A DNA stretch of 64,000 nucleotides from Arenicellales bacterium. Lineage in GTDB: Bacteria > Pseudomonadota > Gammaproteobacteria > Arenicellales > Poriferihabitantaceae. Positions 12,358 through 58,824 of the stretch are shown in pieces. The position numbers were made by a program, and so were the translations under genes. The stretch covers positions 2,725,031 to 2,789,030 of the forward strand of contig OZ241374.1 in NCBI GenBank assembly GCA_965200715.1, read 5' to 3'. Numbering within the stretch: position 1 is the first letter of the stretch; every line of letters starts with the position of its first letter. The notes under the pieces are model-generated. The model ran no database searches. It was not told where the DNA came from and saw only the letters and a program-made list of their open reading frames with translations.

Positions 12358-12736
12358 TTCAATCTGGTGCAGAAGCTAACTTCGTATCCGAAATTTGGTA
12401 ATTCAATCTTCATTTCTTATCCATATAATCTTACCTGAAAGCATGCATAATCTATTGGCCGATGTATTTTGGTGCATATCAACCAATTTCAGGTAGCAAT
12501 TCGCGTCATGAGACTTGGATATCGAAACTCCTCCAAAAAAATTACACATGCATCAATCTACCTTTGCTTCTAGTTTCAGTACCTGCTAGATTCAGATCAT
12601 CAATAATCATCTGGTGCAAACGTAGTTCGTATCGAACATCTGTAACTTGCAATCAAAGAAGCCAGAACTAAACCATTTTAATGATCTCATGGATGTATGG
12701 GGTGCTTAGTTGTAACAGACAACAGCCAGATAAAAA

Positions 12737-12755
12737 TGTTATCATGTTGATAACA
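12737..12755. promoter_or_regulatory. Perfect 8-3-8 inverted repeat TGTTATCA-TGT-TGATAACA, candidate (metallo)regulator operator
   Basis: Read directly from the sequence. It lies about 125 nt upstream of the MBL-fold/HupE gene pair, in the divergent intergenic region shared with the MFS gene. The half-site TGTTAT/ATAACA is reminiscent of Zur/Fur-type boxes. Confidence 0.3.
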
Positions 12756-12879
12756 AAACGTATTTCATGACTACAATTCCATCAGCTCGATAAAACGTCG
12801 ATCATAGACTCAACCCGCCTTACTTTAATCATAATTTATGTGGTAATCTATCTCATCAATCAACCTGAATTATTACACA

Positions 12880-13821
12880 ATGAATAGAACAAAAATATTT
12901 GCAATAGCCATTGCAATAGCCATTGGCGGTATCGCAACAATCAGTGACGAGGCAGTCAGTCAAATGAATGCCTGGATGTCGAATAAGAATCACAATCGGA
13001 TTGTTCAAATACAGAATGAAGGTGGTGTTCAGAATTCTTCTGGAATGGTTGAAATTGCCTATTATAGTAACTCGTCATTCAAAATAACCTCACCAAAGGG
13101 CATAACCTTAATGGTAGATCCTTGGAGAAACGACCCTTCAGGAGCATGGGGTCTTTGGTATCGCATGGAGTTCCCAATGACGGAGGTGGACATTGGTTTG
13201 TCTACCCATGCCCATTTTGACCATGATGCTCTGGATAGACTAGATGCGAATATGTTGTTAGATCGCATGGGCGGCACCTTTGAACTTGGCGATGTCAAGA
13301 TCATTGGAATTGCTGACAAACATGTCTGTGTCGCACCGGGAATCATTCCTTGGACAGATGCCGTCAAGCAATTTGAAGGACGAGACGATCCTTGCCCACC
13401 TACCAACATGAGACACTTGGATAATAATCTCTACATCATTGAAACTGGGGGTCTACGCCTTCTGATGTGGGGAGATAATCGAGCTGACCCACCCGCTTCA
13501 GTCATGGAAAAAATCGGACAAGTGGATGTTGTGTTCGTACCGGTTGATGGATCACGACACATTCTCGACTATGAACAAGCGGATAATGTTGTTGTAATGA
13601 CCGGTGCAAAAGTGGCTATCCCTCATCACTATCTGGTGCCAGAGACAACATTTGTGACTTCCACTTTAATGACTGCTCTTGAATGGACCGAGCGACATCC
13701 AAACACGATACTGGATAAACCGACTGTACAATTAAGTACAGATAGTATCGCCGATATGAAGGGGCATGTGATGTACTTCGGCTCTCACAATATGGTTACT
13801 AACGAAGGCGGTACTGGCTAA
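12880..13821 (+). CDS. Secreted MBL-fold metallo-hydrolase
   Basis: N-terminal signal-like segment IFAIAIAIAIGGIA, the metal-binding motif STHAHFDHD, and later PHHY. Confidence 0.7.
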   Translation: MNRTKIFAIAIAIAIGGIATISDEAVSQMNAWMSNKNHNRIVQIQNEGGVQNSSGMVEIAYYSNSSFKITSPKGITLMVDPWRNDPSGAWGLWYRMEFPMTEVDIGLSTHAHFDHDALDRLDANMLLDRMGGTFELGDVKIIGIADKHVCVAPGIIPWTDAVKQFEGRDDPCPPTNMRHLDNNLYIIETGGLRLLMWGDNRADPPASVMEKIGQVDVVFVPVDGSRHILDYEQADNVVVMTGAKVAIPHHYLVPETTFVTSTLMTALEWTERHPNTILDKPTVQLSTDSIADMKGHVMYFGSHNMVTNEGGTG

Positions 13822-20532: not shown

Positions 20533-21705
20533 ATGAATGAGCAAGCAGCAAAACGCCCGACAAAAGAATTGACGGTGCAAATCCATAATAGAATCGATGA
20601 GATCCCACCCGAAGATTGGGATGGCATACTGAGAAATGACTATCCATTTCTGAAACACTGCTTTCTGTCAGCCATTGAACGCCATGAATGCATCGGCGAA
20701 GGGGTTGGCTGGATCCCACGACACATAGGCATCTACGAGCAGTCTCAGCTTATCGCTGCCATGCCGCTATATGAGAAACACAATTCATGGGGGGAATTCG
20801 TATTTGATCATGTTTGGGTAGATGCCTATCATCGCTATGGACAACACTATTACCCAAAACTGGTAAACGCGATTCCCTTTACTCCGGTAACCGGGCCGAG
20901 AATCATCAGCCAGAAGCAACGAGGTTATATGGATGTACCAATTTTCATTCAGTCGATAAAATCAATGATGGAACGTTTTGGGTATAGTTCACTGCACTGC
21001 CTCTTCCCAGACCAGAGGGATCAACAGCACTTGAAAATCAATGATGCGTTGGTTCGTAGCGACTGCCATTTCCAGTGGCATAATCATAGTTATTCTTCGT
21101 TTGAGAATTTTCTAGATGGACTCAAATCCAAAAAACGAAAAAATATCCGTCAGGAACGGAGAAAAGTTACCGAAGCTGGCGTTACGATTCGCTGGCTCAG
21201 TGGTCATCAGACAACTCACCAAGATTGGCATGACTTTTATGAAGTCTACAATCTGATCTATCAGCGCAAATATGGCATGCCTGCGTTTAACCTTGAGTTT
21301 TTTTTGGAAATTGCACACACGATGTCGGACCAAGTCATTCTGGCACTGGCTGATTACCAGAAATCGGTCATAGCCGGTGCTCTTTTCTACCGCGATGAGC
21401 AAACACTTTATGGCAGAATCTGGGGAACCCGACAAAGGATGGACTCTCTGCATTTTGAACTATGTTATTACGCGGGGATTGACTATTGCATCCGCGAAGG
21501 CCTTGCGAGATTTGATCCCGGAGTTCAGGGTGAACACAAAATCGCCAGAGGTTTTGTGCCAACCGAAACTCACTCCCTTCACTGGATTGCAAGTCAACCA
21601 TTCAGACGAGCGATTCGTGAATTTCTTGAACGAGAGCAGTATGGGGTTCAGAGCTATATGAACAGTATTGAGGACCGCACAGCCTATGGGATCCAATCCA
21701 CATGA
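20533..21705 (+). CDS. FemAB-like / DUF482 (GNAT-fold) family protein
   Basis: WDGILRNDYPFLKHCFLSAIE, WGEFVFDHVWVDAY, YYPKL...IPFTPVTGPR and RFDPGVQGEHKIARGF fit the family. The ATG at 20533 gives the usual ~390-aa length. The longer upstream extension looks non-coding. Confidence 0.7.
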   Translation: MNEQAAKRPTKELTVQIHNRIDEIPPEDWDGILRNDYPFLKHCFLSAIERHECIGEGVGWIPRHIGIYEQSQLIAAMPLYEKHNSWGEFVFDHVWVDAYHRYGQHYYPKLVNAIPFTPVTGPRIISQKQRGYMDVPIFIQSIKSMMERFGYSSLHCLFPDQRDQQHLKINDALVRSDCHFQWHNHSYSSFENFLDGLKSKKRKNIRQERRKVTEAGVTIRWLSGHQTTHQDWHDFYEVYNLIYQRKYGMPAFNLEFFLEIAHTMSDQVILALADYQKSVIAGALFYRDEQTLYGRIWGTRQRMDSLHFELCYYAGIDYCIREGLARFDPGVQGEHKIARGFVPTETHSLHWIASQPFRRAIREFLEREQYGVQSYMNSIEDRTAYGIQST

Positions 21706-23126
21706 ATGATCTTTATGCTTCTCGCGGACCATTCATGCCACTTGCAGGCAGGTCACGAACGAATCCCAACCCAGTGCTGAATTATTTGCCGGTAATTTTG
21801 TTCTTCTTGTTGATTCTGGGGATCGTCATTTACAAGTCCAATACCATACCCGATCGGATTGCCAGTGAAGTAAGTCAGCAGTTAAAACCATATCCGAGAC
21901 TGGCATCTGTTGCTGATGTTCGTGGTCGTACTCTGGTATTAGAAGGTTCGATCGACCCTTTTCCGGGCATGGATGAAGCCATTAGCCAACTCGCCTCCAT
22001 CAGTGGATTGCGTCGCTTGGACGACCGACTGATCCGACTTAATCTTGCTTCACCCTATCTGCATCTAATACAAAATGAAGACTCAATTATCCTAACGGGA
22101 TCGCTGAATCAGGAGGATTTCGATTCTGTGATTGAGCAAATTCAAGCTGCTTTTCCCTATTTAACGATTCGGCATTGGATTCAAATCGAAGATACAGTCG
22201 GGACGCCATTGTGGCTAGAAGGGCTATCGAAAAGTCTTAACACACTGCACTCGGTGAAAGACCTTGAACTCAGGGGGTGGAGAAATCGGTTACAACTGAA
22301 TGGCAATATCCCAAATAAGGATAGTCAGACACTTGTTCGTTCCATGGCAGCCTCCCTAGTGCACCGAGTTGAAGTCGAAAACCGAATTGTCGAGCAGTCA
22401 TCAACCAACCAAGCTACCAAGTTCTCGCTACGTGCAAATCAAGATGGTCTGGAGTTGTATGCCACGGTAAAAAACCGAGAACAGGCTACCCAAATTCAAA
22501 ATGCCGCTGAGCGTGTCTTTGGGCTGGTCGTCGGGAGAATAGAACTCAACCCAAATCTCGAAAATGACCCAGTTCTATCATCTATGCTGCCTCTTTTTCC
22601 CGATTTGGCACTGGTGAAAGACTTACGCTTGATGAGTGATGGAAATAAATACGTTGTATGGGGTGAAGTATCTAGTTCGAATCGACTTGAAAAGATTACC
22701 CAACGCATCCGCGAGCTGGGGATGGCGAGCGATATCAAAAATAAAATTCACATTCACAAAAGTAACACGCCAGCCATTCTGACAATGCTTCGCTATGACA
22801 AGCAAATTACCTTATCCGGAAAACTCCCGAGTTCATTTGTTCGAAACCAGTTGCTGGAATCTACCCGAGAAATCTTTGCTACCAAAATCATCGAATCCTC
22901 GCTCGATATTCTACAGCATGTTGAATACTCTACCTGGATTGAAATATGGCCTGAAGTGATAAAATCCATTCCTCTGGAGGTTTTTGGTATCGCTGTTGAC
23001 AATTCTCAGGTCGTCCTGACGGGCATGCCGGAATCGGAAGAACAGAGTCAGGGCATAGCACTCCGAATTGGTGAGTTACTCCCAGATTATCAGGTCCGTA
23101 ACTGGATGCGAATATCCGACCTCTAA
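21702..23126 (+). CDS. Membrane-anchored protein with seven BON-like repeats
   Basis: One N-terminal TM helix (LPVILFFLLILGIVIY) is followed by seven ~45-65-aa modules. Each fits the pattern v.l...g..l.L.G.v.s......i...a......V.n.i. Confidence 0.5.
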   Translation: MNDLYASRGPFMPLAGRSRTNPNPVLNYLPVILFFLLILGIVIYKSNTIPDRIASEVSQQLKPYPRLASVADVRGRTLVLEGSIDPFPGMDEAISQLASISGLRRLDDRLIRLNLASPYLHLIQNEDSIILTGSLNQEDFDSVIEQIQAAFPYLTIRHWIQIEDTVGTPLWLEGLSKSLNTLHSVKDLELRGWRNRLQLNGNIPNKDSQTLVRSMAASLVHRVEVENRIVEQSSTNQATKFSLRANQDGLELYATVKNREQATQIQNAAERVFGLVVGRIELNPNLENDPVLSSMLPLFPDLALVKDLRLMSDGNKYVVWGEVSSSNRLEKITQRIRELGMASDIKNKIHIHKSNTPAILTMLRYDKQITLSGKLPSSFVRNQLLESTREIFATKIIESSLDILQHVEYSTWIEIWPEVIKSIPLEVFGIAVDNSQVVLTGMPESEEQSQGIALRIGELLPDYQVRNWMRISDL

Positions 23127-24703: not shown

Positions 24704-25028
24704 ATAGAGAGACCTCCCAAGTATAATTGAAGAGAATCTATTGCATTTGATCGCTCACGGCCTGATGGGTATCGACTCGCGGACCACTCTTTTGTTTTGG
24801 AATGACTCTGTGCAAGCCTTTGTATATACCGGACCGATCATCCCGAATGTTCTTTCCTGTAACCGCCCTTCTGTTGCGGTCTCAGCACAACAATCAGGAT
24901 ATCGGAATCATCTTAACCAACGGGTATACAAAATTTGTATTTTGGAATACGAACGACTGGTTCCAGTTTATACCAAAATATGGGAAAAATCATTCTGCCC
25001 TAATCGACAATTAGAATCAGCGAAACCC

Positions 25029-26421
25029 ATGAGATTTTTTATAGCACTAGGCGCACTGGCCACACTTATAACGGGATGTGGAGGTAGTGGAGGTACCTCT
25101 ATGCACATCACCGAAACGAACTCAACATCCATGACAATGAATAATCCCCCGCAAGCACGAACACGAACAAGCACGCAATTACAAAATAGTAATTTTAGCA
25201 ACTTGGAATGGTATGTTGATCCTCAAGTCGATTTGCCGAGAGATGGTCGTGGTGGCCTCAGAGTGATTAGACCCGAACAAGGGGGTGCGTCCTTTATTCG
25301 GCCGGACTTTGATAATCGGTTATTGGAACGTCTAGAACCTAGCTTGAGATTTAATCAACAGGCACAAACTCGAATAACCGCTTTTGCTAGTGTACTCGGG
25401 ATTTTATATAGCCAAGCCTATCGACAATGGACACGACATTTAAATTATGATCCGGGTGATCTTGCCTTACAAATTGGCAGATTGCGGGGCTGGAAGTTTA
25501 GGCTGTTATGATCCTATAAGTAATATTGTCATATTAAATGAGGATACAATCGTTCGTAACTATGGGCGATATTTGGATTGGTTAATTTCTGGGAATGATG
25601 TTTTTGCTGAACAAGCAATTCAAGAGCTTTTCCTCTTATTTACCCATGAAGCTGCGCACCAATTCGGCTATCAAAATCCAGATGGTATTTCAGGACGAGA
25701 AAATGATTGTAGTAGCCAGGAAGACTACTGCCATGCTGCTTACGGTTCCGGAAGTATAGTCAGTTATGGCCACCTAAGAGGAGGAAGTGTTCGCTACAAC
25801 GTGACTGAGGAGGATATTCGGCACATACCCAATGCTACATGGAACGATGAACTATTTGATCGGTATTCGGTTTCACGAGCAGGCACACCCGCTTCCATTG
25901 ACCAATGGGGTGTTTGGATCGATCATTATTTTGCTGTTTCCGGGCAAACCGCACCCGGAAGAACCTTCGGTGGCAACCTGAATATATCCGATGATCTTGT
26001 CGGAACGGGTTGGGTACGTGGAGTCGCATCGGAGAATGTTTCGCTCACGGGTTCGGCGACCTGGAGTGGAACCGATAATTTTCTAGGCGTGGATATGAGT
26101 GCAAATTATTTGGGGGCACTGCTCAGAGCCGACGCTAATCTGCACTATACCTTTGCAGCAAATCCAAACCTGAATGTGCGGATCAACAATTTTGAAGCTC
26201 ATTATTCCCGCATTGGTGCTACTAGATGGCATGACCACACATTCACCGACTGGGGTGACTTCAGCTACGATTTGGAATGCACCGCGAACGGGTGTGCAAA
26301 CACCCTTGCAAGAGCCGAATGGTATGCCAACGATACTGGTGATCCCTCCGGCTGGATCGGTGGTGTCGTGAACGATCAAATCAACACTTACGAGGGATCT
26401 TTTGTCGCGGAGAAAGACTAG
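25029..26421 (+). pseudogene. Surface-lipoprotein-like gene (lipobox + HExxH region + TbpB-like C-terminal beta-barrel), interrupted by a frameshift at 25444-25511
   Basis: The signal/lipobox MRFFIALGALATLITGC is followed by a GGSGG linker. The reading frame switches by +1 between ORFs 24741-25511 and 25447-26421. The second part has FTHEAAHQFG and ends ...GSATWSGTDNFLGV...YEGSFVAEKD, like TbpB/fHbp-type barrels. Confidence 0.5.
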
Positions 26422-30170: not shown

Positions 30171-31158
30171 CTTGCCACTTGGTCCATTGATTATTGATTT
30201 CTCTGGCGAAACACTGGGTTCAGAGGAAAGGACATTACTCCAAACAGCCGCTATTGGTGGAGTTATCCTTTTTTCCGATAATTACCGATCACGACAGCAG
30301 TTAACAGAATTGACTGGTGAAATTCGGAGTTTGCGTACCCCACCCCTTCTGATTTGTGTTGATCAGGAAGGTGGTCGAGTACAACGCTTTCGGGATGGTT
30401 TTTTCCGCCTGCCAGCTGCAAAGGAGATCGGGCAAGCATATGAGCAAGATATGCAGATCGGTCTACAACTCGCCCGAAAAATGGGCATTATTATGGCTGG
30501 AGAATTGGTTCTAGCGGGGGTGGATATTAGCTTTGCTCCTGTTCTGGATTGTGCACACCCAAAGAGTCAGGTTATCGGCGACCGAAGCTTTAGCGCTGAC
30601 CCAAATATGATTGCCTCATTAGCCGGAGAATTTGTTAGAGGTATGTGCCAAGCGGGTATGGCAGCTACCGGCAAACACTATCCCGGTCATGGCGGTGTGA
30701 AGGAGGATTCACATGAGCTACAGCCCGTGGATAGTCGCGATTTATCCGCACTATTCGACAAGGATCTTTTACCGTTTCGAAAATTAGCTAAACAATTGTC
30801 TGGAATAATGACGGCACATGTCCAATATCCCAAGATCGACACAACGATTCCCTGTTTTTCGCCTTATTGGCTCGTTACGGTATTACGCCAACGTCTGGGA
30901 TTTACTGGTATTATCTTCAGTGATGATTTAACAATGGGCGGTGCAGAGCAAGGCGGGAAGCCCATTGAGCGTGCTCTTTCAGCATTAGAAGCTGGATGCG
31001 ACATGATTCTTGTATGCAAGGACCGAGAAGCAGTGCTTGAAATTGCTGAACAACTTGGAGACAACCATAACCCAAACCCCAGCAAAATCAATCGCCTTTA
31101 TTCGAAGCAGAAATTATCGGAACTCGATCTGACCATAACCCGATCTTCTCTCGGGTAA
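30163..31158 (+). CDS. nagZ: Beta-N-acetylhexosaminidase NagZ
   Basis: GGVILFSDNY, ICVDQEGGRVQRF, KHYPGHGGV.EDSH and IIFSDDLTMGGA motifs of GH3 NagZ. Confidence 0.9.
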   Translation: MSNLPLGPLIIDFSGETLGSEERTLLQTAAIGGVILFSDNYRSRQQLTELTGEIRSLRTPPLLICVDQEGGRVQRFRDGFFRLPAAKEIGQAYEQDMQIGLQLARKMGIIMAGELVLAGVDISFAPVLDCAHPKSQVIGDRSFSADPNMIASLAGEFVRGMCQAGMAATGKHYPGHGGVKEDSHELQPVDSRDLSALFDKDLLPFRKLAKQLSGIMTAHVQYPKIDTTIPCFSPYWLVTVLRQRLGFTGIIFSDDLTMGGAEQGGKPIERALSALEAGCDMILVCKDREAVLEIAEQLGDNHNPNPSKINRLYSKQKLSELDLTITRSSLG

Positions 31159-31583
31159 GTGAGTGGCTAACTACCAAATATTAAATCACAGTGTACAAAC
31201 ACTGAGCTTATGACAATATCGACATAACTAACCAAAGGGAACCTTACGAATCTTTGAATTGAGTTGGATAGGATAGTGACCAACCCATATCACAGTCTAG
31301 TTTTATTGGCTTGCTAACCGAGTGCTACTTTATTGAAAAACAAGTCTTCAGATATCCATGTTAGCGGAGTGAACTATTCCACCCACTGTCAATTTCTCGT
31401 TGTAACCAAGTAAATAACAGGACATCCCAGAGAAGTGGAAACTCTCCATTTACTTTTTTTTAGGGATTCCTTATTGATTCTTATTACCTTACTCAATGAC
31501 CTAGATGCTTTACGCCTTCACCGATGACCACTAAAAATGCAATTATCATGTAACCAATAGACAAGTTTTTGATATACTTCTAT

Positions 31584-31599
31584 ATTGTTAACGAACAAT
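31584..31599. promoter_or_regulatory. Inverted repeat ATTGTT-AACG-AACAAT upstream of the sterol operon
   Basis: 6-bp perfect arms with a 4-nt spacer, 51 nt upstream of the first start codon (31650), inside a 491-nt AT-rich leader. Confidence 0.2.
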
Positions 31600-31649
31600 C
31601 ATAAGTATCTATTTTTTAATTGATATGAACTAGAACTGATCGATCGGAT

Positions 31650-32744
31650 ATGGCAAAAAATTCTACAATAAAGAAGAATTCACCGTCTGCACCGGTACTC
31701 ATAACAGGTGCAGGGGGACATCTCGGTGCTAACCTTGTCCACCGACTTCTAGATGATGGTGTCAAAGTCAGAGTGTTGGTGCGCGCGGAGAGTAAAAATG
31801 AGGCTATTCAGGGTCTGAATGTTGAGCGCTTTTACGGCGACCTCCGTCAAAAAGAAAGTCTAAGACCGGCTCTTGAAGGATGTCAGGGGGTCTATCATGT
31901 TGCTGCTAGAATTGCTACGATTAATGGCAATAAACAGTTCCGGCGAGAACTGTATGAATGCAATGTTGTAGGCACTCGCAACCTGCTTGAGGTCGCCCGT
32001 GAATGTGAGGCGGGTCGGGTAGTCGTAACCGGATCATTTAGTGCTGTAGGATACGACTTGGATAATCCTTCCTTGCCGAGTGATGAAACGATGCAGTTTT
32101 ATCCTCTGGAACGCACAATGCCCTACGAGCGAACCAAGGCATTTGTGGAACATGAGTGCTGGCAAGCAGTGGCGAAAAATCAGGATGTGGTCGTTGCTAC
32201 TTGTTGTGCATTAATGGGAGGTTGGGATTATCATCCATCCAGACTGGGTCGAACGCTTGTTGATTACGCAAACGGAAAACTTCGGGCATATGTCGATGGA
32301 GGCTTTGAATTCGTAGCTGCAAGGGACATTGTAGAGGGACATATCCTGTGCATGCACAAAGGTCGTCCAGGAGAAAAATACATCTTCAGCACTGAATTCA
32401 AGACGATCTCAGAAATTTTGGATATTTTTGAAGAAGTGACTGGCATACCTCGCCCGGCTAAACGTGTACCCGCAAAATTGATGGAAATGTTTGCTGAGGT
32501 AGCCAGTTTTTATTTGAGCCATTTTCACCCATCCTTTCCACAGCGATTTACCCCAGGAGCCATTCGTCTTCTTCAATTATGTCGGCATGCAAACACTCAG
32601 AAAGCTCAAGAGGAACTTGGATTCGAGCCATCCACAATTCGTCAAGCTGTTAAAGATGCATATGAATTTCACTATAATCAGCGTAAGGTGATTACCAATC
32701 CGGATGCAAAACCTCCGGAAGAAGTGGCTTCAGTCGCCGAATAA
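31650..32744 (+). CDS. Extended-SDR NAD(P)-dependent reductase/dehydrogenase, SdmB-like (candidate sterol C-4 demethylation partner / 3-ketosteroid reductase)
   Basis: Rossmann motif ITGAGGHLGANLV, catalytic PYERTK (YxxxK), and 3beta-HSD/dihydroflavonol-reductase-like length. It is the first gene of an operon with a Rieske oxygenase, a sterol reductase, CYP51 and an OSC. Confidence 0.6.
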   Translation: MAKNSTIKKNSPSAPVLITGAGGHLGANLVHRLLDDGVKVRVLVRAESKNEAIQGLNVERFYGDLRQKESLRPALEGCQGVYHVAARIATINGNKQFRRELYECNVVGTRNLLEVARECEAGRVVVTGSFSAVGYDLDNPSLPSDETMQFYPLERTMPYERTKAFVEHECWQAVAKNQDVVVATCCALMGGWDYHPSRLGRTLVDYANGKLRAYVDGGFEFVAARDIVEGHILCMHKGRPGEKYIFSTEFKTISEILDIFEEVTGIPRPAKRVPAKLMEMFAEVASFYLSHFHPSFPQRFTPGAIRLLQLCRHANTQKAQEELGFEPSTIRQAVKDAYEFHYNQRKVITNPDAKPPEEVASVAE

Positions 32745-32789
32745 TAATCTTGTCGTTTTATATATACGAAAATATCGAGGTAAGTTAGA

Positions 32790-33905
32790 ATGAATTTACA
32801 AGCTACTACCGAAGCACCACCTGGATTTTACGATTCAAACAACCTACGCCAGAAAGTGCGTGCTACGGGCTTGGACCCAAATTACTGGTATGCCGTCGAA
32901 GTAGCCCAGAATATAAAGCCGGGCTCGGTCACTGAGGTTATTTTCTGGAAACAATCCATCGCCCTGTATCGAACCAAACAGGGGGATTTTCATGCGCTTG
33001 AGAATCGCTGCGCACATCGCCAGATCAAACTCTCACTAGGTGATGTTGATGGCTGTACTCTGGTTTGCCCCTATCATGGCTGGTCCTATGATAACTGTGG
33101 ACGCCGTGCTGATAATCGCAAGGAAGGAGACAATCCCGAAACAATACGACCATCAATCACTAGTTATCCCGTAAAAGTACGATACGGGCTAGTCTGGTTA
33201 TTCCCCGGTGATCCGGAACGGGCTACAGAACAGGAAATTCCTGATATCCCTGAACTTGAAGGGAAAGATCGTTGGTCTTGTGTTCCACTCAATTTCACCT
33301 GGTCTGCACACCACTCAATGGTAATTGATAATGTAAGCGATTTTACCCACGCACACCTGCACCGAAAATACCGACCTTTTGAAGGCGCAACACTGACAAA
33401 GTTCGAGACGATCGGGGACGATGTCCACCTTTCCTACGACACCCAAGTTGGACGTGGTCGTATTTCAGGATTATTTGTCGACCACAAAAAACTGAACACC
33501 AATCAGATGGACCTGTGTTACAAATATCCGTATCAATGGTCAAATACGGATGATGCGATCAAACATTGGTTGTTTGTCTTACCGATAAACGAGCGGACTA
33601 CTCGGGTATTCTTTTTCTTTTATTTTAAAACGCTAAAAGTTCCCTATCTTCCTGTACGTATCCCTCGCGTCATAATGGATTTGATTATGCGAATTTCTAG
33701 CCGCTGGCTAATTGCACCGCTACTAGATCAGGATCGGTATGCGATTGAGGCTGAACAGGAAGGATATGAGAAGTTCTGGGATGCGCATCCAGTTGAATTT
33801 AACCCAGTGGTCAAGGCATTTCAGGAAGTAACCGTTCGCAAGTGGCAGGAGTTTCTGGAATCCAAAAAAATTGAAGGGCAATCGCCGAGCCATTCAACTA
33901 GTTAA
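32790..33905 (+). CDS. Rieske [2Fe-2S] non-heme-iron oxygenase, SdmA-like (candidate sterol C-4 methyl oxidase)
   Basis: Rieske ligands CAHRQ...CPYHGW (33009-33077), the mononuclear iron motif DNVSDFTHAHLH, and the operon context. Confidence 0.65.
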   Translation: MNLQATTEAPPGFYDSNNLRQKVRATGLDPNYWYAVEVAQNIKPGSVTEVIFWKQSIALYRTKQGDFHALENRCAHRQIKLSLGDVDGCTLVCPYHGWSYDNCGRRADNRKEGDNPETIRPSITSYPVKVRYGLVWLFPGDPERATEQEIPDIPELEGKDRWSCVPLNFTWSAHHSMVIDNVSDFTHAHLHRKYRPFEGATLTKFETIGDDVHLSYDTQVGRGRISGLFVDHKKLNTNQMDLCYKYPYQWSNTDDAIKHWLFVLPINERTTRVFFFFYFKTLKVPYLPVRIPRVIMDLIMRISSRWLIAPLLDQDRYAIEAEQEGYEKFWDAHPVEFNPVVKAFQEVTVRKWQEFLESKKIEGQSPSHSTS

Positions 33906-33911
33906 CATTCC

Positions 33912-34991
33912 GTGATTGAACTCACACTTACAGGAACGTCGCTACTGGTAGCTAGTACGTTGTTAATCGGTTTCTGCGGACTGTTGTTCGTGGGTTCGAT
34001 CATCGCACCGGGACCCAAAATCGAAACCACACGTTCCGATGGCACAACTTTCGTCTATAAACTAAATGGGCTCAGCCTGTTTTTGTTTACGACTGCGGTA
34101 ATGATACTAGCCCACTATTTCGGCTGGTTTTCACTCTCCATATTAATAACATACTTTCTGGAACTCTTTATCGTAACCAATATATTCGCCTTTGCAGTGT
34201 CTTTGTGGCTGTACCTAGAAGGAAAAAATTCACAAACCGAACCGTCAAGTTTCTTGAAAGGCTATTATTATGGCGTCACACTAAATCCAACCCTATGTGG
34301 TGTTGATCTAAAAATTTATAGTTATCGACCTTCACTCATTGGTCTAGCTTTGTTTAATGCCTCATTTGCAGCGGTGCAATATGAGACCTATGGATCCCTG
34401 ACTTTAGCGATGATCATTTATCAGGGCTTTACTTTTCTGTACATACTGAATTATTTCCACTTCGAAAACGGAATGATCTTTACATGGGATATAGTTAGCG
34501 AAAAGTTTGGTTGGATACTGGTCTGGGGTGATTTTGTTCTGGTTCCGTTCTTTTACTGTATTTGCGGTTGGTATCTTGTGCATACCCCTGATTTGCTCTC
34601 GCCATTAGCGGCTACATTGCTAATTATGCTTTATATTTTTGGATTCTGGATGTTTCGTGGAACCAATAACCAGAAGCACCGTTTCAAATCCAACCCAAAC
34701 ATCAAGATTTGGGGACAACCTGCTGAATCACTCGATGGTCGTCTATTGGTCTCTGGATTTTGGAGTTGGGGCAGACATATGAATTATACTGGAGAAATTC
34801 TAGTGTATTTCTCATTCTTTCTGACTACCTGTTTTGTATCGTGGGTACCACTGTTATTACCGTTATGGCTCACCGGCTTGTTGATTCATCGTTCCTTTCG
34901 TGATGAAATGCGCTGCAATGCCAAGTATGGTGAATTATGGCAACGTTATAAGCAACGTGTCCGCTATACCATGTTTCCACCAATCTACTAG
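33912..34991 (+). CDS. ERG4/ERG24-family sterol reductase (C-14 reductase type most likely)
   Basis: A polytopic membrane protein with the family signature LLVSGFWSWGRHMNYTGEIL and the C-terminal HRSFRDEMRCNAKYG. GTG start 6 nt after the upstream stop. Confidence 0.75.
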   Translation: MIELTLTGTSLLVASTLLIGFCGLLFVGSIIAPGPKIETTRSDGTTFVYKLNGLSLFLFTTAVMILAHYFGWFSLSILITYFLELFIVTNIFAFAVSLWLYLEGKNSQTEPSSFLKGYYYGVTLNPTLCGVDLKIYSYRPSLIGLALFNASFAAVQYETYGSLTLAMIIYQGFTFLYILNYFHFENGMIFTWDIVSEKFGWILVWGDFVLVPFFYCICGWYLVHTPDLLSPLAATLLIMLYIFGFWMFRGTNNQKHRFKSNPNIKIWGQPAESLDGRLLVSGFWSWGRHMNYTGEILVYFSFFLTTCFVSWVPLLLPLWLTGLLIHRSFRDEMRCNAKYGELWQRYKQRVRYTMFPPIY

Positions 34992-35002
34992 AAGAATCTG
35001 TC

Positions 35003-36403
35003 ATGTCACAAACCGCTGAAAGCGTGAATGGTTCTGGTCCGTTGATGCGGATGCCAACAATGAGTGGGGGTTGGCCGTTGCTGGGTCATCTGCCCGGCTT
35101 TCTGAAAGACCCTGTTTCGTTATTAACCCGTGGATGGAGTGCTGAGGGCGATCTATTCCGCTTCAAGATTGGTTTCAGTAACTTTGCTCTGTTCACGGGA
35201 CTTGAAGCACATGATTTCTATTTTCGAGCCGGTCAGGATGAATTGAGTGCGAAAGCCTGTTATCAGTTCACGGTGCCTATTTTTGGTAAGGGGGTAGCCT
35301 ATGATGTTGCACCTGAGCTGATGGCTGAACAATTGGGCTTTCTATTTCCTGCACTGCGTGATAATGCAATGCGCAGATATGCCAAGATTATGTATCATGA
35401 GGTCTGCATGTATGCTGATTCGCTTGGCAAAGAAGGTCAACTCGACCTACCCGCAGCTTTGAATGAACTCACGGTCAGAAACGCAAGTCATAGCCTGATT
35501 TGCAAGGAAGTTAGGCATGAAGCAAGCAGTGAATTTGCTGCGGCCTATCATGAATTACAAAACGGGATCAACACACTCGGGTTCTTCTTTCCGAATTTGC
35601 CCACGGCCGCACATCGATCCCGAGACCGGGCACGACAAAAAATTCACCAGATTTTCAGCAAAATCATGGAAAAACGACGACGTGAAGGTTCGGATGAACA
35701 AGACTTCATGCAAACCCTCATGGAAGCCCGATATAAAGATGGTAGGGCGCTAACTGATGATGAGATATCCGGCATTTTGGTTACCGTTTTATTTGCAGGA
35801 CAGCATACTAGCGCAGTCTTGGGTACTTGGACAATGCTGGAGCTGATGCGAGATACTGCCTATCTGGCTCGTGTCCGGGAAGAAAACGAGAAACTGTATT
35901 CAGATACTGGTTTTATGGAACTGACCACTCTCAAGCAACAGAGCATCCTAGAATACGCAATTCGTGAAGGTGAACGATTACATCCTCCACTCATCCTGTT
36001 AATCCGTAAGGTCTTGAAACCTTTAGTATATAACGGTTACGAAATACCTGTTGGTACTCTTGCGATGGTCTCGCCTGCGGTTTCGCACCGGTTAGAGCAT
36101 ATTTTTTCTGATCCAGAACGATTCAATCCTGATCGATATGCACCCCCAGCAAGAGAAGATAAACAACACCACTACACGCTGATCGGTTTTGGTGGAGGTA
36201 AACACCGGTGTATGGGCAAGGCCTTTGCGATTCTTCAACTGAAGATCGTTCTAGGGGTATTGTTTGATCGCTTCGACTTCAGCATTAATTCGTGCTTCCC
36301 GCTTCCCAACTATCGTAGCTGGGTTACTGGACCAACAGAACCCTGCCTAGTCAATTACAAACGACGCTTGGAACCCAGCATTCTCAAAACAGAGGTGGCA
36401 TGA
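35003..36403 (+). CDS. cyp51: Cytochrome P450 sterol 14-alpha-demethylase (CYP51), no ferredoxin domain
   Basis: CYP51 B'-helix signature YQFTVPIFGKGVAYD, I-helix FAGQHTS, and heme loop FGGGKHRCMGKAFA (Cys codon at 36209-36211). Confidence 0.85.
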   Translation: MSQTAESVNGSGPLMRMPTMSGGWPLLGHLPGFLKDPVSLLTRGWSAEGDLFRFKIGFSNFALFTGLEAHDFYFRAGQDELSAKACYQFTVPIFGKGVAYDVAPELMAEQLGFLFPALRDNAMRRYAKIMYHEVCMYADSLGKEGQLDLPAALNELTVRNASHSLICKEVRHEASSEFAAAYHELQNGINTLGFFFPNLPTAAHRSRDRARQKIHQIFSKIMEKRRREGSDEQDFMQTLMEARYKDGRALTDDEISGILVTVLFAGQHTSAVLGTWTMLELMRDTAYLARVREENEKLYSDTGFMELTTLKQQSILEYAIREGERLHPPLILLIRKVLKPLVYNGYEIPVGTLAMVSPAVSHRLEHIFSDPERFNPDRYAPPAREDKQHHYTLIGFGGGKHRCMGKAFAILQLKIVLGVLFDRFDFSINSCFPLPNYRSWVTGPTEPCLVNYKRRLEPSILKTEVA

Positions 36404-39400
36404 CTTCTAAATACGATGTTGCGATAGTAGGGGGCGGACCCGTTGGTAGTGTCTGCGCCCTAGCTCATGCCCGCAAGGGTTCTCACGTCGTAATGCTTGA
36501 GGCAAATCCAAAATCCGCTTATCGATTGGCAGGAGAGTGGTTGCATCCACCTGCTGTCCGGATTCTAGAGGAATTAGGTGTTCAACTAGACATCGAGTGT
36601 GAACAGCCGATTGGCAAGGGTTTTGCAATTTTTCCAGAAGATGGAACCGAAGCAATTCGCTTCCCCTATTCCAAAAATGCCCGAGGTTTCTCCTGTGAGC
36701 ATTCGACACTTGTTGCTTCGATCCACAAAACGGTCATCAATCAGCCAAATATTGATTTTCTACTCGATGCTCGGGCTGTAGCCGTTGAAGATGGACTCAT
36801 TGAGTACACTTACCAAGGAGCAAAAGAAACTATCCATGCACCTCGAATTATTGGTGCCGATGGTCAGGCTTCAATTGTTCGTCAGTCACTAGGCTTATCG
36901 GTCAATCCAAAAATCATCTCCCAAACTGTTGGGATCATATTGAATGATGTCGAATTGCCACTTGAGGGTTATGGGCATGTGTTTCTAGGCGGACCTGGAC
37001 CGATTTTGATTTATCGCTTGTCTGAAGGGCAGGTCAGACTTATTTCGGATATTCCTCAAGATCGCACTTCTCCGAGGGATCGAATTTCCTTTTTACTGGA
37101 TTCATATACCGAGATTTTGCCCGATACAATCAAGCCTTCTTTCATGGAAGCATTGCGCATGAAGAAATTTCAGATTGCCATAAACAAGGTCAGGCCGCAT
37201 GTTACATATGGAAATTCCAAGCGGATTCTGATTGGCGATGCTGCTGGACACTATCACCCAATGACTGCCATGGGTATGACTTTCGGATTTGCAGACGCTT
37301 TTGCGCTCGCTGAGCACGAAGATTTCAAGATCTTTACGCGCAAACGTTTTCGAGACACGCATACTCCATCATTCTTAGCTATGGGTTTATATGAGGTATT
37401 TGCGGATTATCATTCGGAGGCAGTTGCCATCCGACATGCAATCTATAGCAGAGCACGTGCAAGTTCGGGATTCCGAAATCGAACTATTCGATTATTAGCC
37501 TGTGACGACACATCGGCGATTCGCATGAACATTGCTTTTTTCAGCACGGTGGTTCAGGCGGTCTACAAACAGATTCCTTTCTCTCTGAATAAACTTGCTT
37601 GGCAAAAATCCTATAAAACGTTAGAGTCCTTGTGCAGACGGTTGTGGTGGCTCCTTTTGGCCATCAAACAGTTGTATAAAGTCAAATATCGGGGGGAGGA
37701 CATGGACGACCGGGCGTGGAACATGCTCTCCGGGGTGTTCAAGTTTTCGGTACCATTCCAGAAATCAAAGAATAAACAGACCAAACTAAGGGATAAACCA
37801 TCATCCGATGCGAGTCCAGCATTGCAATCAGCGATCGCCCAATTAGCGAATTTACAACGCAAAGACGGCTCGTGGGAAGGGGAGATGGTTTGGTGTCCGA
37901 TGCTAACTGCGCAATATGCACTGTTACATTACATTATTGGCAAACCATTGAGTGCGAAACGACGCAAGAATATTTTGCGTTCCTTTGTAAAGACCCGTTT
38001 CGATAATGGGACCTGGGGCATGCATGATCACTCTGATCCTCATCTGTTTGTGACCACACTGGTTTATATTGCTAGCCGATTGCTAGGTATTGAACGTGAT
38101 GATCCTATGTTGAAGCCCGCCCAAGAATTCATCGAGTCTGAAGGTGTTGTTAACGTCCCGAGTTGGGGTAAATTCTGGTTGGCAGTACTCAATCTCTATG
38201 AATGGCAAGGCGTCAATGCCGTATTGCCTGAACTCTGGGTTTTGCCGCGCTGGTTACCAATTCACCCATCCAAATGGTATTGTCATACTCGACTCATCTA
38301 CATGGCAATGTCAGTCATTTATGGACATCGCTTCCAGACATCCTTAAGTCCGGAGATCGAGTCGCTCCGTGAAGAGCTATACCCAAATGGGTTTGATCAG
38401 GTTGATTTTTCAAAAACCAGAAACCTATTACGGGAAGGAGATTTATTCGCCCGTCCACATTTTCTGTTGCGAGTAGCAAATAGTCTGACGAGATTTTATG
38501 AAGAACGGCATCACAAAACGACTCGAAAGCGATCGATGAATGAGATGAGTGAGAAAATCAAGTGGGAATTACAGACTACCGATCACACTAGTATTTCTCC
38601 GGTCAGTGGTACGCTAAATATTCTTGCATTATGGTTACAGGACAATGAAAACCCGGATGCGAAACGTGGCCTCGATCAACTGGAAGGTTGGGTTTGGGAA
38701 GACAAGACAGATGGAGCTAGAGTAACCGGTGCCAGAAGCGGATCTTGGGATACTGGATTTGCACTTCAGGCACTACAACCGGTTTCTAGTTTCGATGGCA
38801 CCACAAGAATCATGAAGTCTGGCGCTCGGTTTTTGACTGAGAATCAGATCAGAACCAGTTTTGAGGGTTATTCCGAGTCTTATCGCAATGATCCGAGAGG
38901 TGGATGGTGTTTTGCTGGAGGATGGCACGGATGGCCAGTATCTGACTGTACCGCAGAAGCGGTGCTTGGTTTGATTGCTTTTCATGGCAAGGCTGCGGAC
39001 AAATCTGCAATCAAGGATGCTATCGAATTCATGTTGCGTGCGCAAAATCGCGATGGCAGTTTTGGCAGTTATGAATCCATCCGTTCCAGAATTGGGCTTG
39101 AGTGGCTGAATCCGGCTGAGATGTTTGGCGAATCAATGACAGAAGGTGCATATGTTGAATGTACAGCTTCCTGTCTTGAAGCTTTCAGTGCTTGTAAGGA
39201 GAATTTTCCGGATCTGGTCAATACCCAAGTCATGAACGCAATCATCAAGGGCGATGCTTGGTTACGAAAGACTCAGCGAGCCGATGGTTCTTGGCGAGGT
39301 GTTTGGGGAATTCAGTATATCTATGGTACCTTGTTCGGTATTCGGGGTCTAATGGCTACTGGAGCAAAACCAAGTGATCCTGCACTAAGATTGGCCTGTC

Positions 39401-39867
39401 GATGGCTTTTGGATCGCCAACACGATGATGGCGGATGGGGTGAGCACCATAGTGGTTGTATGAGCGGCGAGTATGTTGACCATAAAGAGAGTCAAGTCAT
39501 TCAAAGTGCCTGGGCTTTGATCGCTCTGCAGGTTGCAAGAGATGCTAGCTGGAACGCTATTTCCAGAGGAGCACAATATCTACTTGATATGCAAAATGAA
39601 GATGGCTCTTGGCCAAAGCAGGATATGGCAGGTGTGTTTTTTAGAACAGCGTTGCTGGATTATGTTTTATATCGACAGTATTTTCCGATTCATGCACTGG
39701 GGCTGTATGAAAAAAATCGCCATATTAGAATGAATCTGGCTACTTCTGTAATATCCATGCAGGAATCAGCAGATATCAATACCAGAGACGAAACATTGAT
39801 ATCTCCGGTCAATCAACCCAATTCTTCAACGGACCAAGACCGTGCTCTTGCATCTACTGCAAAATAG
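36400..39867 (+). CDS. Fusion protein: FAD-dependent squalene monooxygenase (aa 1 to ~440) + oxidosqualene cyclase (aa ~475-1155)
   Basis: A single uninterrupted 1155-codon ORF. The N-terminal part has VAIVGGGPVGSVCALAHARKG and GDAAGHYHPMTAMGMTF (the squalene epoxidase motif). The C-terminal part has repeated QW motifs (RAQNRDGSFGSY, RKTQRADGSWRGVWG, LDRQHDDGGWGEH, LDMQNEDGSWP) and the catalytic GWPVSDCTAEA (Asp codon at 38944-38946). The ATGA overlap with the cyp51 stop couples the two genes. Confidence 0.85.
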   Translation: MTSKYDVAIVGGGPVGSVCALAHARKGSHVVMLEANPKSAYRLAGEWLHPPAVRILEELGVQLDIECEQPIGKGFAIFPEDGTEAIRFPYSKNARGFSCEHSTLVASIHKTVINQPNIDFLLDARAVAVEDGLIEYTYQGAKETIHAPRIIGADGQASIVRQSLGLSVNPKIISQTVGIILNDVELPLEGYGHVFLGGPGPILIYRLSEGQVRLISDIPQDRTSPRDRISFLLDSYTEILPDTIKPSFMEALRMKKFQIAINKVRPHVTYGNSKRILIGDAAGHYHPMTAMGMTFGFADAFALAEHEDFKIFTRKRFRDTHTPSFLAMGLYEVFADYHSEAVAIRHAIYSRARASSGFRNRTIRLLACDDTSAIRMNIAFFSTVVQAVYKQIPFSLNKLAWQKSYKTLESLCRRLWWLLLAIKQLYKVKYRGEDMDDRAWNMLSGVFKFSVPFQKSKNKQTKLRDKPSSDASPALQSAIAQLANLQRKDGSWEGEMVWCPMLTAQYALLHYIIGKPLSAKRRKNILRSFVKTRFDNGTWGMHDHSDPHLFVTTLVYIASRLLGIERDDPMLKPAQEFIESEGVVNVPSWGKFWLAVLNLYEWQGVNAVLPELWVLPRWLPIHPSKWYCHTRLIYMAMSVIYGHRFQTSLSPEIESLREELYPNGFDQVDFSKTRNLLREGDLFARPHFLLRVANSLTRFYEERHHKTTRKRSMNEMSEKIKWELQTTDHTSISPVSGTLNILALWLQDNENPDAKRGLDQLEGWVWEDKTDGARVTGARSGSWDTGFALQALQPVSSFDGTTRIMKSGARFLTENQIRTSFEGYSESYRNDPRGGWCFAGGWHGWPVSDCTAEAVLGLIAFHGKAADKSAIKDAIEFMLRAQNRDGSFGSYESIRSRIGLEWLNPAEMFGESMTEGAYVECTASCLEAFSACKENFPDLVNTQVMNAIIKGDAWLRKTQRADGSWRGVWGIQYIYGTLFGIRGLMATGAKPSDPALRLACRWLLDRQHDDGGWGEHHSGCMSGEYVDHKESQVIQSAWALIALQVARDASWNAISRGAQYLLDMQNEDGSWPKQDMAGVFFRTALLDYVLYRQYFPIHALGLYEKNRHIRMNLATSVISMQESADINTRDETLISPVNQPNSSTDQDRALASTAK

Positions 39868-39930
39868 TTCAAGAATTTGGATGATGACCCTACCCATACC
39901 ATGGTTTGAAGGTGCCGTTGAAAATAACAA

Positions 39931-40398
39931 TCACCTGCCTTTTGTGACTTGTTCGGAAATCCGGTCGAAAAAATAGCCAATCTGCTTTTTTGCAAAAGGT
40001 TTGATCACTAATGCTCCAATTTTTGCTAGTGGCCCATATACCACTATTTCAGCAGAATAATTGATACGCGCATTATCCTCATCCATGGATTCAAGTCTGA
40101 CATCTGCTTTCGCTTCCGCAGTGACTTGATCATCACTTTTAACCGAGACTTGCAGTTTATATTTCTCGATAGCGTTACTGTCAATGATCTTTAGTTTTGC
40201 GGAATAATGGTTTTGGACTGGACCAATCTTAATATGAAAAAGGGCAATATACTCGCCATGGTCCAATCGATTGACCTCATAGCAACTGTTCAAGCATGCT
40301 TTCAGGATTTCGGGATCAGTGATCGCTTGCCATAAACGCTCTGCAGATAGAGGGACCGCATAACTGGAATTAATTTTCATATCTTCCAACTTGTTCAA
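39931..40398 (-). CDS. SRPBCC superfamily protein, CoxG-like (START-like ligand-binding fold)
   Basis: The sequence ...AVPLSAERLWQAITDPEILKACL...YGPLAKIGALVIKPFAKKQIGYFFDRI follows the CoxG family pattern over its full length. Confidence 0.7.
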   Translation of the reverse strand: MNKLEDMKINSSYAVPLSAERLWQAITDPEILKACLNSCYEVNRLDHGEYIALFHIKIGPVQNHYSAKLKIIDSNAIEKYKLQVSVKSDDQVTAEAKADVRLESMDEDNARINYSAEIVVYGPLAKIGALVIKPFAKKQIGYFFDRISEQVTKGR

Positions 40399-40537
40399 TT
40401 TGTCTCAATTTTCAGATATTTTCTATATACTAGAAAATGCAACAGTTTAAACCATTGAAAATTGGTCAGTATTTCACATATTTTTGCATTCAAGTATAAT
40501 CTATTTATGTTCATTACTCTAAATATGAATAGAACTT

Positions 40538-41368
40538 GTGTATAACTCTCGACTCCAATCAAATACTAGTGATATCAATTTATCTGAGCAATTTCAGAAT
40601 CTTGGTTGGCTTCATTTCAAATTTGACCCTGCTCTTCTCAAGTGGGTTGATCATGTACTGCCCTATGCAAGAGCCGCAGTAGCCGCTCCCGAGAATGCCG
40701 AATGGTTACGTTGTGGTGGCACTTGGTTTGTAGGAGTCAACCTACTGCCCAATAATTTACAAGGCCGAGTTGATGATTCAGATCCAATTAGCGGGGAAGC
40801 AATCTCGTTTCTCAAGAATAATCATGCATTTACTGGATTTAATCTGGACAAGGCACAGATATCCGTCTGTTATCCTGGATATCCGAAACCTTCCGAAACT
40901 GAATTCGGTTCCACGTATCGCTACCGCCGTAATCGTGATGGTGCACATATTGACGGACTGCTCGCAATTGGAGCGGACCGTCGTCGATACCTGAAAGAAC
41001 CTCATGCTTATATACTCGGGATTCCAATGACCGACTTCAACGCTGATGCCGCACCCCCGGTTGTATGGGAATCTTCGCATAACATTGTTCGCGCTGTATT
41101 CCGGGAATTCTTTTCTGATATCCAAGAGGAACTATGGGCAGATGTCGATATCACCAATACCTATCATCATCTTCGCAAAGAAGTATTTGACAAATGCCAA
41201 CGCATTCAACTGAAACTGAAACGAGGAGAGTCCTTCCTAGTTCATCGATTGGCATTACATGGCATTGGCCCATGGGGTGAAACTGCTAGAGCTGGTCCTG
41301 ATGGTAGGATGATCTGCTATTTCAGACCAAAATTCAAAAGTCCAAGTGAATGGCTATGTGCACCATAA
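40538..41368 (+). CDS. Hypothetical protein, possible PhyH-like Fe(II)/2-oxoglutarate oxygenase
   Basis: Candidate HxD (GAHIDG), a mid-region VVWESSH and a distal His (FLVHRLALHG) are spaced as in PhyH-type dioxygenases. This is a weak, motif-only call. Confidence 0.3.
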   Translation: MYNSRLQSNTSDINLSEQFQNLGWLHFKFDPALLKWVDHVLPYARAAVAAPENAEWLRCGGTWFVGVNLLPNNLQGRVDDSDPISGEAISFLKNNHAFTGFNLDKAQISVCYPGYPKPSETEFGSTYRYRRNRDGAHIDGLLAIGADRRRYLKEPHAYILGIPMTDFNADAAPPVVWESSHNIVRAVFREFFSDIQEELWADVDITNTYHHLRKEVFDKCQRIQLKLKRGESFLVHRLALHGIGPWGETARAGPDGRMICYFRPKFKSPSEWLCAP

Positions 41369-58788: not shown

Positions 58789-58817
58789 TTGTAATTTATA
58801 AACTTGACATTTATAAT
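58789..58817 (+). promoter_or_regulatory. Sigma70-like promoter TTGTAA-17 nt-TATAAT, possibly giving a leaderless mRNA for the DUF4143 ATPase
   Basis: The -10 hexamer ends 7 nt before the ATG at 58825. No Shine-Dalgarno sequence lies between them. Confidence 0.3.
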
Positions 58818-58824
58818 TGCAAAT

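Follow-up and report, generated by a model that had tools for sequence, protein, structure and literature searches.

The 64,000-nucleotide stretch analyzed here (the window), from contig OZ241374.1 of an Arenicellales bacterium, carries five adjoining genes on its forward strand that very probably form an operon for aerobic sterol synthesis in an uncultured gammaproteobacterial symbiont of sponges and represent another copy of the cassette known as the msb locus or as "clusters of steroid genes" (CSGs). This cassette circulates among sponge-associated bacteria, and the window holds a compact, methyltransferase-less version of what was published between 2020 and 2023. The grouping of the genes goes beyond chance, because each open reading frame (ORF) has a strong family match and 61 of 80 independent loci share the same gene order. 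The gene identities, the catalytic motifs, the conserved order and the purifying selection were all observed directly. An earlier reading of the same DNA, made without database searches (the sequence-only reading), had proposed a complete squalene-to-demethylated-sterol pathway in a layout of which it knew no earlier description. Its functional part was essentially right, but novelty and completeness are not upheld; the layout had appeared as msbA-msbE in 2020 (PMC7074536) and as a widespread operon of sponge metagenome-assembled genomes (MAGs) in 2022 (PMC9531527).

The five same-strand ORFs were found exactly where the sequence-only reading had placed them, separated in gene order by gaps of 45, 6, and 11 nt and then by a 4-nt ATGA stop/start overlap, behind an AT-rich leader of 491 nt (Table 1).

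Table 1. Sterol gene cluster, protein domains, and associated features (positions of the window; the last six rows refer to the surveyed relatives)
Feature	Position	Strand	Remarks
SdmB-like extended short-chain dehydrogenase/reductase (msbA equivalent)	31650-32744	+	364 aa, ATG start
SdmA-like Rieske non-haem-iron oxygenase (msbB equivalent)	32790-33905	+	371 aa, ATG start
ERG24-type integral-membrane sterol reductase (msbC equivalent)	33912-34991	+	359 aa, GTG start
CYP51, predicted sterol 14alpha-demethylase (msbD equivalent)	35003-36403	+	466 aa, ATG start
Squalene epoxidase-oxidosqualene cyclase fusion	36400-39867	+	1155 aa, ATG start
Squalene epoxidase (FAD monooxygenase) domain	36400-37572	+	fusion residues 1-391
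Interdomain linker	37573-37809	+	fusion residues 392-470
Oxidosqualene cyclase domain	37810-39723	+	fusion residues 471-1108
Unconserved C-terminal tail and stop codon	39724-39867	+	conservation ≤0.08 beyond residue 1126
AT-rich intergenic leader	31159-31649	+	491 nt, 5' of the SdmB-like gene
Sigma-70-like promoter candidate TAGACA-17-TATATT	31558-31586	+	64 nt 5' of the ATG, 10/12 consensus positions
CoxG-family gene	39931-40398	-	convergent with the operon, 63 nt 3' of the fusion gene
Sterol C-24 methyltransferase beside cassette			49/80 loci
GPP34-P450 fusion near cassette			23/80 loci
Unannotated 275-aa protein near cassette			18/80 loci
MMPL transporter near cassette			17/80 loci
Amine-oxidase-like flavoprotein near cassette			15/80 loci
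LolA-like protein near cassette			8/80 loci

The last gene encodes a squalene epoxidase (SE) fused to an oxidosqualene cyclase (OSC). In the AlphaFold2 model (mean predicted local distance difference test [pLDDT], 74; predicted template modeling score [pTM], 0.70), two folded domains are joined by a helical linker; as interdomain confidence was not reported, we draw no conclusion on substrate channeling from this model. The N-terminal flavin adenine dinucleotide (FAD) domain matched Pfam SE (97 bits) and FAD_binding_3 (82 bits) and aligned with human squalene monooxygenase 6C6N across residues 6 to 389 (1.8e-29), and its motifs GGGPVG (11 to 16), GADG (152 to 155), and GDAAGHYHP (279 to 287) are invariant in 65 homologues. 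The linker is the least conserved internal stretch of the protein (mean conservation, 0.61 to 0.68); it has no transmembrane-grade hydrophobic window and is modeled as helices at 398 to 431 and 437 to 446, with pLDDT below 50 at 456 to 465, as also in the tail (1116 to 1155). The cyclase domain matched human lanosterol synthase 1W6K at 2e-128 (about 35% identity) versus only 4.5e-50 for squalene-hopene cyclase, and scored 509 bits with the squalene/oxidosqualene cyclase model TIGR01787 (cutoff, 322.7), compared to 261 bits with the hopene cyclase model, which is under its cutoff of 431. The sequence DCTAE marks oxidosqualene cyclases and DxDD marks squalene-hopene cyclases. In the fusion protein, VSDCTAE occupies residues 847 to 853 together with four QW-type motifs, and neither D849 nor C850 varies among 120 homologues, all of them SE-OSC fusions of 1113 to 1174 aa. 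The fusion proposed by the sequence-only reading was thereby verified, and hopene cyclases proved to be the more distant relatives.

Residue V847 of the fusion aligns with human V453, the position marking lanosterol synthases. In the bacteria tested by Wei 2016, position 453 alone was predictive, and Val corresponded to lanosterol every time (PMC4919349); because of this full correlation, the cyclase domain is predicted to be a lanosterol synthase. However, the three classical product residues, A778/H843/V847 (human 381/449/453), which are invariant in the 120 fused homologues, form a mixed signature that fits neither the lanosterol-synthase pattern (T381, C or Q449, and V453) nor the cycloartenol-synthase pattern, since His at 449 corresponds to cycloartenol synthases and Ala at 381 to neither class. 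The enzyme might therefore make another product, such as cycloartenol, parkeol, or an arborane-type triterpenol, and the downstream chemistry would then differ. We consider this improbable, given that the Val453-lanosterol correlation was complete in the bacteria of Wei 2016 (PMC4919349), that Mohanty 2020 made the same lanosterol call for MsbE (PMC7074536), that the cluster has no candidate for a cyclopropyl-sterol isomerase, and that the CYP51 and ERG24 genes directly adjoin the cyclase gene.

The P450 encoded just upstream of the fusion matched Pfam p450 (190 bits), and its best solved relative is the 551-aa CYP51 chain of Methylococcus capsulatus (6MCW, 1.7e-103), which agrees with the CYP51 assignment made earlier. 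The top 56 distinct PDB sequences are CYP51/14-demethylases (1.7e-103 to 1.5e-53), the exception being one generic "Cytochrome P450" entry (9wat, 3.6e-70), and the first clearly non-CYP51 P450 appeared at 4.5e-29. The signatures YQFTVPIFGKGVAYD (87 to 101) and GQHTS (266 to 270) and the haem loop FGGGKHRCMG (396 to 405) are all present. At 466 aa, compared to 551 aa in M. capsulatus, the protein lacks a fused ferredoxin domain; it is predicted to be a sterol 14alpha-demethylase whose redox partner is not encoded in the window.

Of the five proteins, only the neighboring reductase has hydrophobic segments of transmembrane grade. It matched Pfam ERG4_ERG24 at 220 bits against a cutoff of 27 and aligned over 331 residues with the solved bacterial delta14-sterol reductase 4QUV (6.6e-71, about 40% identity), confirming its earlier assignment to the ERG4/ERG24 family; LLVSGFWSWGRHMNYTGE at 278 to 295 contains the C-terminal signature of this family, LLxSGxWxxxRHxNYxG (278 to 294). 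Its N terminus is about 60 residues shorter than that of 4QUV, and its GTG start lies 6 nt after the Rieske gene. It seems that the short form is typical of the family rather than a contig truncation, because tblastn matches in related loci span a similar length. On the basis of its best solved relative, a delta14 reductase, and its conserved position beside CYP51, we predict that the enzyme acts on delta14. A second ERG4/ERG24 paralogue, 29 to 30% identical to the window reductase, lies 3' of the cassette in two alphaproteobacterial loci (L019:15048-16160 and L050:14925-16037) and could be a delta7 or delta24 reductase.

The first two genes encode a short-chain dehydrogenase/reductase (SDR) and a Rieske oxygenase. 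For the SDR, the best NCBIfam model was SdmB (313.5 bits, profile positions 3 to 325 of 328), followed by HpnA (233 bits); Pfam Epimerase and 3Beta_HSD also matched, and the motifs TGAGGHLG (18 to 25) and Y159-x3-K163 are present. For the Rieske protein, which matched Pfam Rieske and VanA_C, the best model was 4beta-methylsterol monooxygenase SdmA (398.6 bits, positions 4 to 348 of 351), and the next family reached only 32 bits. Both proteins thus match the Sdm models over their full length and by far better than any other family, which bears out their earlier description as SdmB/SdmA-like; no unrelated aromatic-ring oxygenase was the best match. The Rieske protein carries C74-x-H76...C93-x2-H96 and D180-x3-D184-x2-H187-x-H189-x-H191. 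All motifs quoted in the sequence-only reading are thus present in the five proteins, except that the iron motif is H-x3-H and not H-x4-H. A Rieske and mononuclear-iron oxygenase is paired here with an adjoining NAD(P)-dependent SDR, and their genes lie side by side in 68 of 80 loci; both are under strong purifying selection, with ratios of nonsynonymous to synonymous substitution rates (dN/dS) of 0.04 to 0.07 for the SDR and 0.03 to 0.04 for the Rieske protein. We predict that the Rieske protein is a C-4 methyl oxidase and the SDR a C-4 decarboxylating dehydrogenase/3-ketoreductase. Tested SdmAB homologues differ in outcome, removing one methyl in M. capsulatus and both in Calothrix and requiring SdmC in Enhygromyxa salina (PMC10202945); therefore, the number of C-4 methyls removed here cannot be read from homology.

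According to these assignments, the pathway would proceed in five steps, whose order we infer. The N-terminal FAD (SE) domain would epoxidize squalene to 2,3-oxidosqualene, and the cyclase domain, with the Asp of DCTAE protonating the epoxide, would convert it to lanosterol. CYP51 would then remove the 14alpha-methyl group to give 4,4-dimethylcholesta-8,14,24-trienol (the delta8,14-diene), in which the membrane ERG24-type reductase would saturate delta14 to yield 4,4-dimethylcholesta-8,24-dienol. Finally, the SdmA-like Rieske protein would oxidize a C-4 methyl, after which the SdmB-like SDR would decarboxylate the intermediate and re-reduce C-3. The expected end product is 4-methyl- or 4-desmethyl-cholesta-8,24-dienol, and squalene and electrons would be supplied by genes elsewhere in the genome. 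Because ERG24 is present, delta8 sterols are predicted, unlike the delta8(14) sterols of most methanotrophs. A more specific idea, to which we give only a small chance, is that this minimal cassette, lacking a sterol C-24 methyltransferase (SMT), could provide a 4-desmethyl delta8,24 (zymosterol-like) sterol by a self-contained route; this would require, jointly and within the same small chance, that SdmAB removes both C-4 methyls as in Calothrix and that the fused A381/H449/V453 enzyme is a channeling enzyme with its own product profile. If that were true, the sponge would receive eukaryote-type sterol precursors from its symbiont, a point that touches the debate on sponge sterane biomarkers.

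The cassette could also serve another purpose, supplying the aglycone of a specialized metabolite (a 30-norlanostane saponin, e.g., the sarasinosides) instead of a membrane sterol, in which case the Rieske/SDR pair would tailor another position, for example by installing a C-23 oxo group, and no C-4 demethylation would occur. Such an aglycone role was proposed for msb by Mohanty 2020, including a possible C-23 oxo installation by MsbA/MsbB (PMC7074536), and the SdmA and SdmB matches under the equivalog cutoffs would leave room for it. However, no glycosyltransferase or other tailoring gene lies beside the cluster, where the neighbors are housekeeping genes; the cassette is spread over many phyla and many different sponges, and its genes are constrained as tightly as housekeeping genes; and SdmA is by far the best-matching family across the whole Rieske protein. 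We therefore regard the aglycone role as unlikely and prefer a sterol pathway with C-4 demethylation.

Several observations weigh against reading the operon as a sterol-synthesis unit. The cyclase domain reached 729.6 bits with the oxidosqualene cyclase model TIGR03463, under its cutoff of 851, and two of the three classical product residues (A at 381 and H at 449) are not lanosterol-synthase-like. The SdmA (398.6) and SdmB (313.5) scores both fall under the NCBIfam equivalog cutoff of 600, and for this reason we call the proteins SdmA-like and SdmB-like and not proven equivalogs. No terminator-like hairpin or intrinsic terminator was found 3' of position 39867. Pfam scans of the 39 flanking ORFs, two of which were rescanned at a looser threshold, detected no squalene synthase, HpnCDE, ferredoxin, or reductase in the 64-kb window. 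Thus, the catalytic steps from squalene onward are covered as the sequence-only reading claimed, but its "complete pathway" does not hold, and the cluster is not self-sufficient, because squalene synthase and the electron-transfer partners of CYP51 and the Rieske protein are missing from the window. In addition, literature searches found no biochemical characterization of the cassette or the fused enzyme.

It is a reasonable inference from the spacing and the conserved order that the five genes are read as a single transcript. The leader, which begins after the preceding GH3 glycosidase gene stops at 31158, has a guanine-plus-cytosine (GC) content of 0.352, versus 0.456 for the cluster and 0.438 for the whole window, and contains only short chance ORFs. 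An Rfam scan of the whole window gave no family at gathering score, the leader included, so no known riboswitch or leader RNA is present there. Aligning the leader with relatives of 84 to 90% identity (L001, L003, L004, and L009) revealed no conserved block, although the last approximately 70 nt are weakly similar, near the -10-like box. The sequence TAGACA-17-TATATT is the second-best promoter match within 31000-40600 and the top candidate for the five-gene unit, but it stays a candidate because the region contains just as many such sites in total as expected after shuffling. One could argue that internal promoters drive subsets of the genes, since the 45-nt gap before the Rieske gene is AT-rich and since sdmAB lies apart and on the other strand in some phyla (L025, L029, L030, L036, and L037), which means that the two modules can be expressed separately. 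This arrangement seems rather unlikely in the window, where the junctions of 6, 11, and -4 nt are too short to accommodate promoters, where neither promoter-like nor terminator-like sites inside the cluster exceed the shuffled expectation, with no internal terminator of note, and where the gene order is the one kept in most loci. A repeat search across 31000-40600 gave short chance matches only and no mobile-element boundaries.

When one genome per GTDB species was scanned, relatives of the fusion protein were encoded in 358 stretches; the best 80 of these made up the loci survey, with gene order determined by tblastn with the window proteins. Nearly all of these 80 loci come from uncultured MAGs, several with sponge-related labels. 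Gammaproteobacterial labels among them include Poriferihabitaceae, Arenicellales, Porisulfidus, and Thiotrichales; further labels are Alphaproteobacteria, Nitrospirales, Binatia, Thermodesulfobacteriota, Opitutales, Acidimicrobiales, Vicinamibacterales, Bryobacterales, and Nitrospinaceae. Outside the close clade, identity to the window fusion protein is 56 to 65%. The 61 loci mentioned above share the identical one-strand order SdmB-SdmA-ERG24-CYP51-SE/OSC, 4 more are interrupted by a contig end, 5 have sdmB, or sdmA and sdmB, moved to the other strand, and 7 hold the fusion gene alone. Two gammaproteobacterial loci (L075 and L077, at about 6600-13330) have SdmB-SdmA-ERG24-fusion without CYP51 between ERG24 and the fusion, and L070 retains only SdmB-SdmA and the fusion. 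In the close clade (L001, L003, L004, and L009), the cassette sits at the same chromosomal site as in the window, all five genes have dN/dS of 0.03 to 0.08, and their dS equals that of the flanking housekeeping genes. Therefore, the cassette in this lineage appears to be functional, vertically inherited, and constrained.

Several further genes accompany the cassette in other loci (Table 1). Searches by tblastn found no window homologue of the SMT, GPP34-P450, MMPL, amine-oxidase-like, or LolA-like genes, apart from the expected weak match of the P450 to CYP51. In 49 loci, the SMT, which has a Sterol_MT_C domain (e.g., L054:13453-14490), directly follows the 3' end of the fusion gene, in most cases on the other strand. 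No SMT was found anywhere in the window or beside the cassette in L001 to L004 and L009, so an adjoining SMT is a common but not universal feature of the cassette, and the sequence-only reading's statement that C-24 methyltransferase and side-chain enzymes are absent holds for the window and its close clade. The 674-aa GPP34-P450 protein (e.g., L036:3196-5220; also in L025, L026, L032, L048, and L070) joins a lipid-binding GPP34 (Golgi phosphoprotein 3) domain to a further cytochrome P450; it may tailor sterols, with the lipid-binding module built into the enzyme. MMPL/RND-type transporter and LolA-like lipoprotein-carrier genes also occur near the cassette (e.g., L070:6423-8723 and L039:4470-5405), none of them near the window cluster; such neighbors recall the Bst sterol transport system of M. 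capsulatus.

The window matches a gammaproteobacterial MAG from a sponge metagenome. A protein of "MAG: Gammaproteobacteria bacterium" matches the fusion protein with 100% identity, and the identical protein is encoded on GCA_026709805.1 (JAPOSG010000024.1) and on the ENA metagenome scaffold ROBB21-1_SAMN13943198. Among genomes, a MAG labeled Candidatus Poriferihabitans comes closest (90% identity), and the closest loci belong to MAGs labeled Candidatus Poriferihabitans or Poriferihabitaceae, several with sponge-related labels (e.g., Spongia_Bin9 and lac_sponge); the ROBB21, CAR, and RHO MAG sets are presumably sponge derived as well. As the ERG24, CYP51, SE, and OSC families are typically eukaryotic, we considered whether the region could be sponge host DNA misbinned into a bacterial contig. 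This is exceedingly unlikely, because the ORFs are intron-free, tightly coupled, and flanked by bacterial housekeeping genes (rpoZ-spoT, nagZ-like GH3, aroE, and lysA), the C-4 demethylation pair is of the bacterial SdmAB type, the GC content is uniform across the region, and MAG assemblies deposited as complete single chromosomes show the same arrangement. Given the bacterial flanks, the complete-chromosome records, and the conserved site in close relatives, eukaryotic contamination was rejected.

The rest of the window is ordinary gammaproteobacterial housekeeping (e.g., pyruvate kinase, class II ribonucleotide reductase, gmk-rpoZ-spoT, aroE, lysA, and argH), without tRNA genes, and includes an aa3-type cytochrome oxidase operon that fits the oxygen demand of sterol synthesis. 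The convergent CoxG-family gene, presumably a member of the SRPBCC/START-like ligand-binding superfamily, is kept in L003 and L004, but KatG (plus AbiEi in L003) lies between the cassette and CoxG there, which makes a functional link doubtful. These intervening genes were considered as sterol genes and rejected, being KatG and AbiEi. No Pfam match was obtained for the sizeable ORFs at 40538-41368, 21702-23126, 24741-26421, and 10124-10882; the first of them (276 aa) is found at the same position in L001, L003, and L004 with 70 to 73% identity. An AAA_14/DUF4143 ATPase gene lies at 58804-60075 amid housekeeping genes.

Sterol synthesis by sponge symbionts bears on the reading of "sponge" or "eukaryote" sterane biomarkers and on host-symbiont lipid exchange. 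The biomarker point is already in print from the same cassette (PMC7074536, PMC9531527, PMC10070321), and the window adds a well-assembled example with a conserved chromosomal context and no adjoining methyltransferase. Its main value is as a clean 8.2-kb five-gene construct with which the fused epoxidase-cyclase and a sponge-type SdmAB pair could be tested biochemically for the first time.

The closest known system is the msb locus (msbA-msbF, GenBank MT026193) from a gammaproteobacterial symbiont of the sponge Melophlus sarasinorum, reported by Mohanty 2020, which encodes an NAD(P) oxidoreductase (msbA), a Rieske oxygenase (msbB), a sterol reductase (msbC), a 14-demethylase (msbD), a bifunctional squalene epoxidase/lanosterol cyclase (msbE), and a methyltransferase (msbF) (PMC7074536). 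Compared by published description, both loci have the same gene content in the alphabetical order of the msb gene names, a cyclase with the lanosterol-type Val, and a gammaproteobacterial sponge symbiont as host; squalene synthase is encoded elsewhere for msb and is likewise absent from the window. They differ in that msbA and msbB overlap, while their window equivalents are 45 nt apart, and in that msbF has no counterpart in the window. Kelly 2022 examined 537 Ircinia sponge MAGs and described CSGs in 115 of them, spanning 10 phyla, and reported evidence that the clusters had been transferred horizontally, together with low omega (PMC9531527). In those clusters, an ERG24-CYP51-LSS core follows a same-strand "dihydroflavonol-4-reductase" and a hypothetical protein, which correspond to the SDR and Rieske genes of the window; SdmA and SdmB were not annotated by Kelly et al., and the 3' end usually carries an opposite-strand SMT or squalene synthase, neither of which is found in the window. 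L004 and other jk18x MAGs are among our relatives, and our survey agrees with that study (PMC9531527). In sponge metagenomes, Brown 2023 likewise reported homologues with squalene monooxygenase (SMO) fused to OSC, along with sterol clusters that contain sdmAB (PMC10070321).

The M. capsulatus pathway (SQMO, OSC, CYP51-ferredoxin, SdmA/SdmB, and 8,14-Bsr) shares with the window the enzyme families for epoxidation, cyclization, and C-14 and C-4 demethylation. SQMO and OSC of M. capsulatus are separate genes, whereas SE and OSC are fused in one polypeptide in the window; conversely, its CYP51 is fused to ferredoxin, and the window CYP51 has no ferredoxin domain. The delta8,14-diene goes to the NTF2-family 8,14-Bsr in M. 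capsulatus but would meet a canonical ERG24-type reductase in the window; most methanotrophs lack ERG24, and their NTF2-family 8,14-Bsr yields delta8(14) sterols (PMC13277303). Calothrix sp. NIES-4105 and Enhygromyxa salina (Lee 2023, PMC10202945) have de novo sterol pathways with SdmAB homologues, as predicted for the window, and in Calothrix sp. NIES-4105, the sterol genes also form a single cluster; both organisms belong to other phyla and have more pathway steps than the window (PMC10202945).

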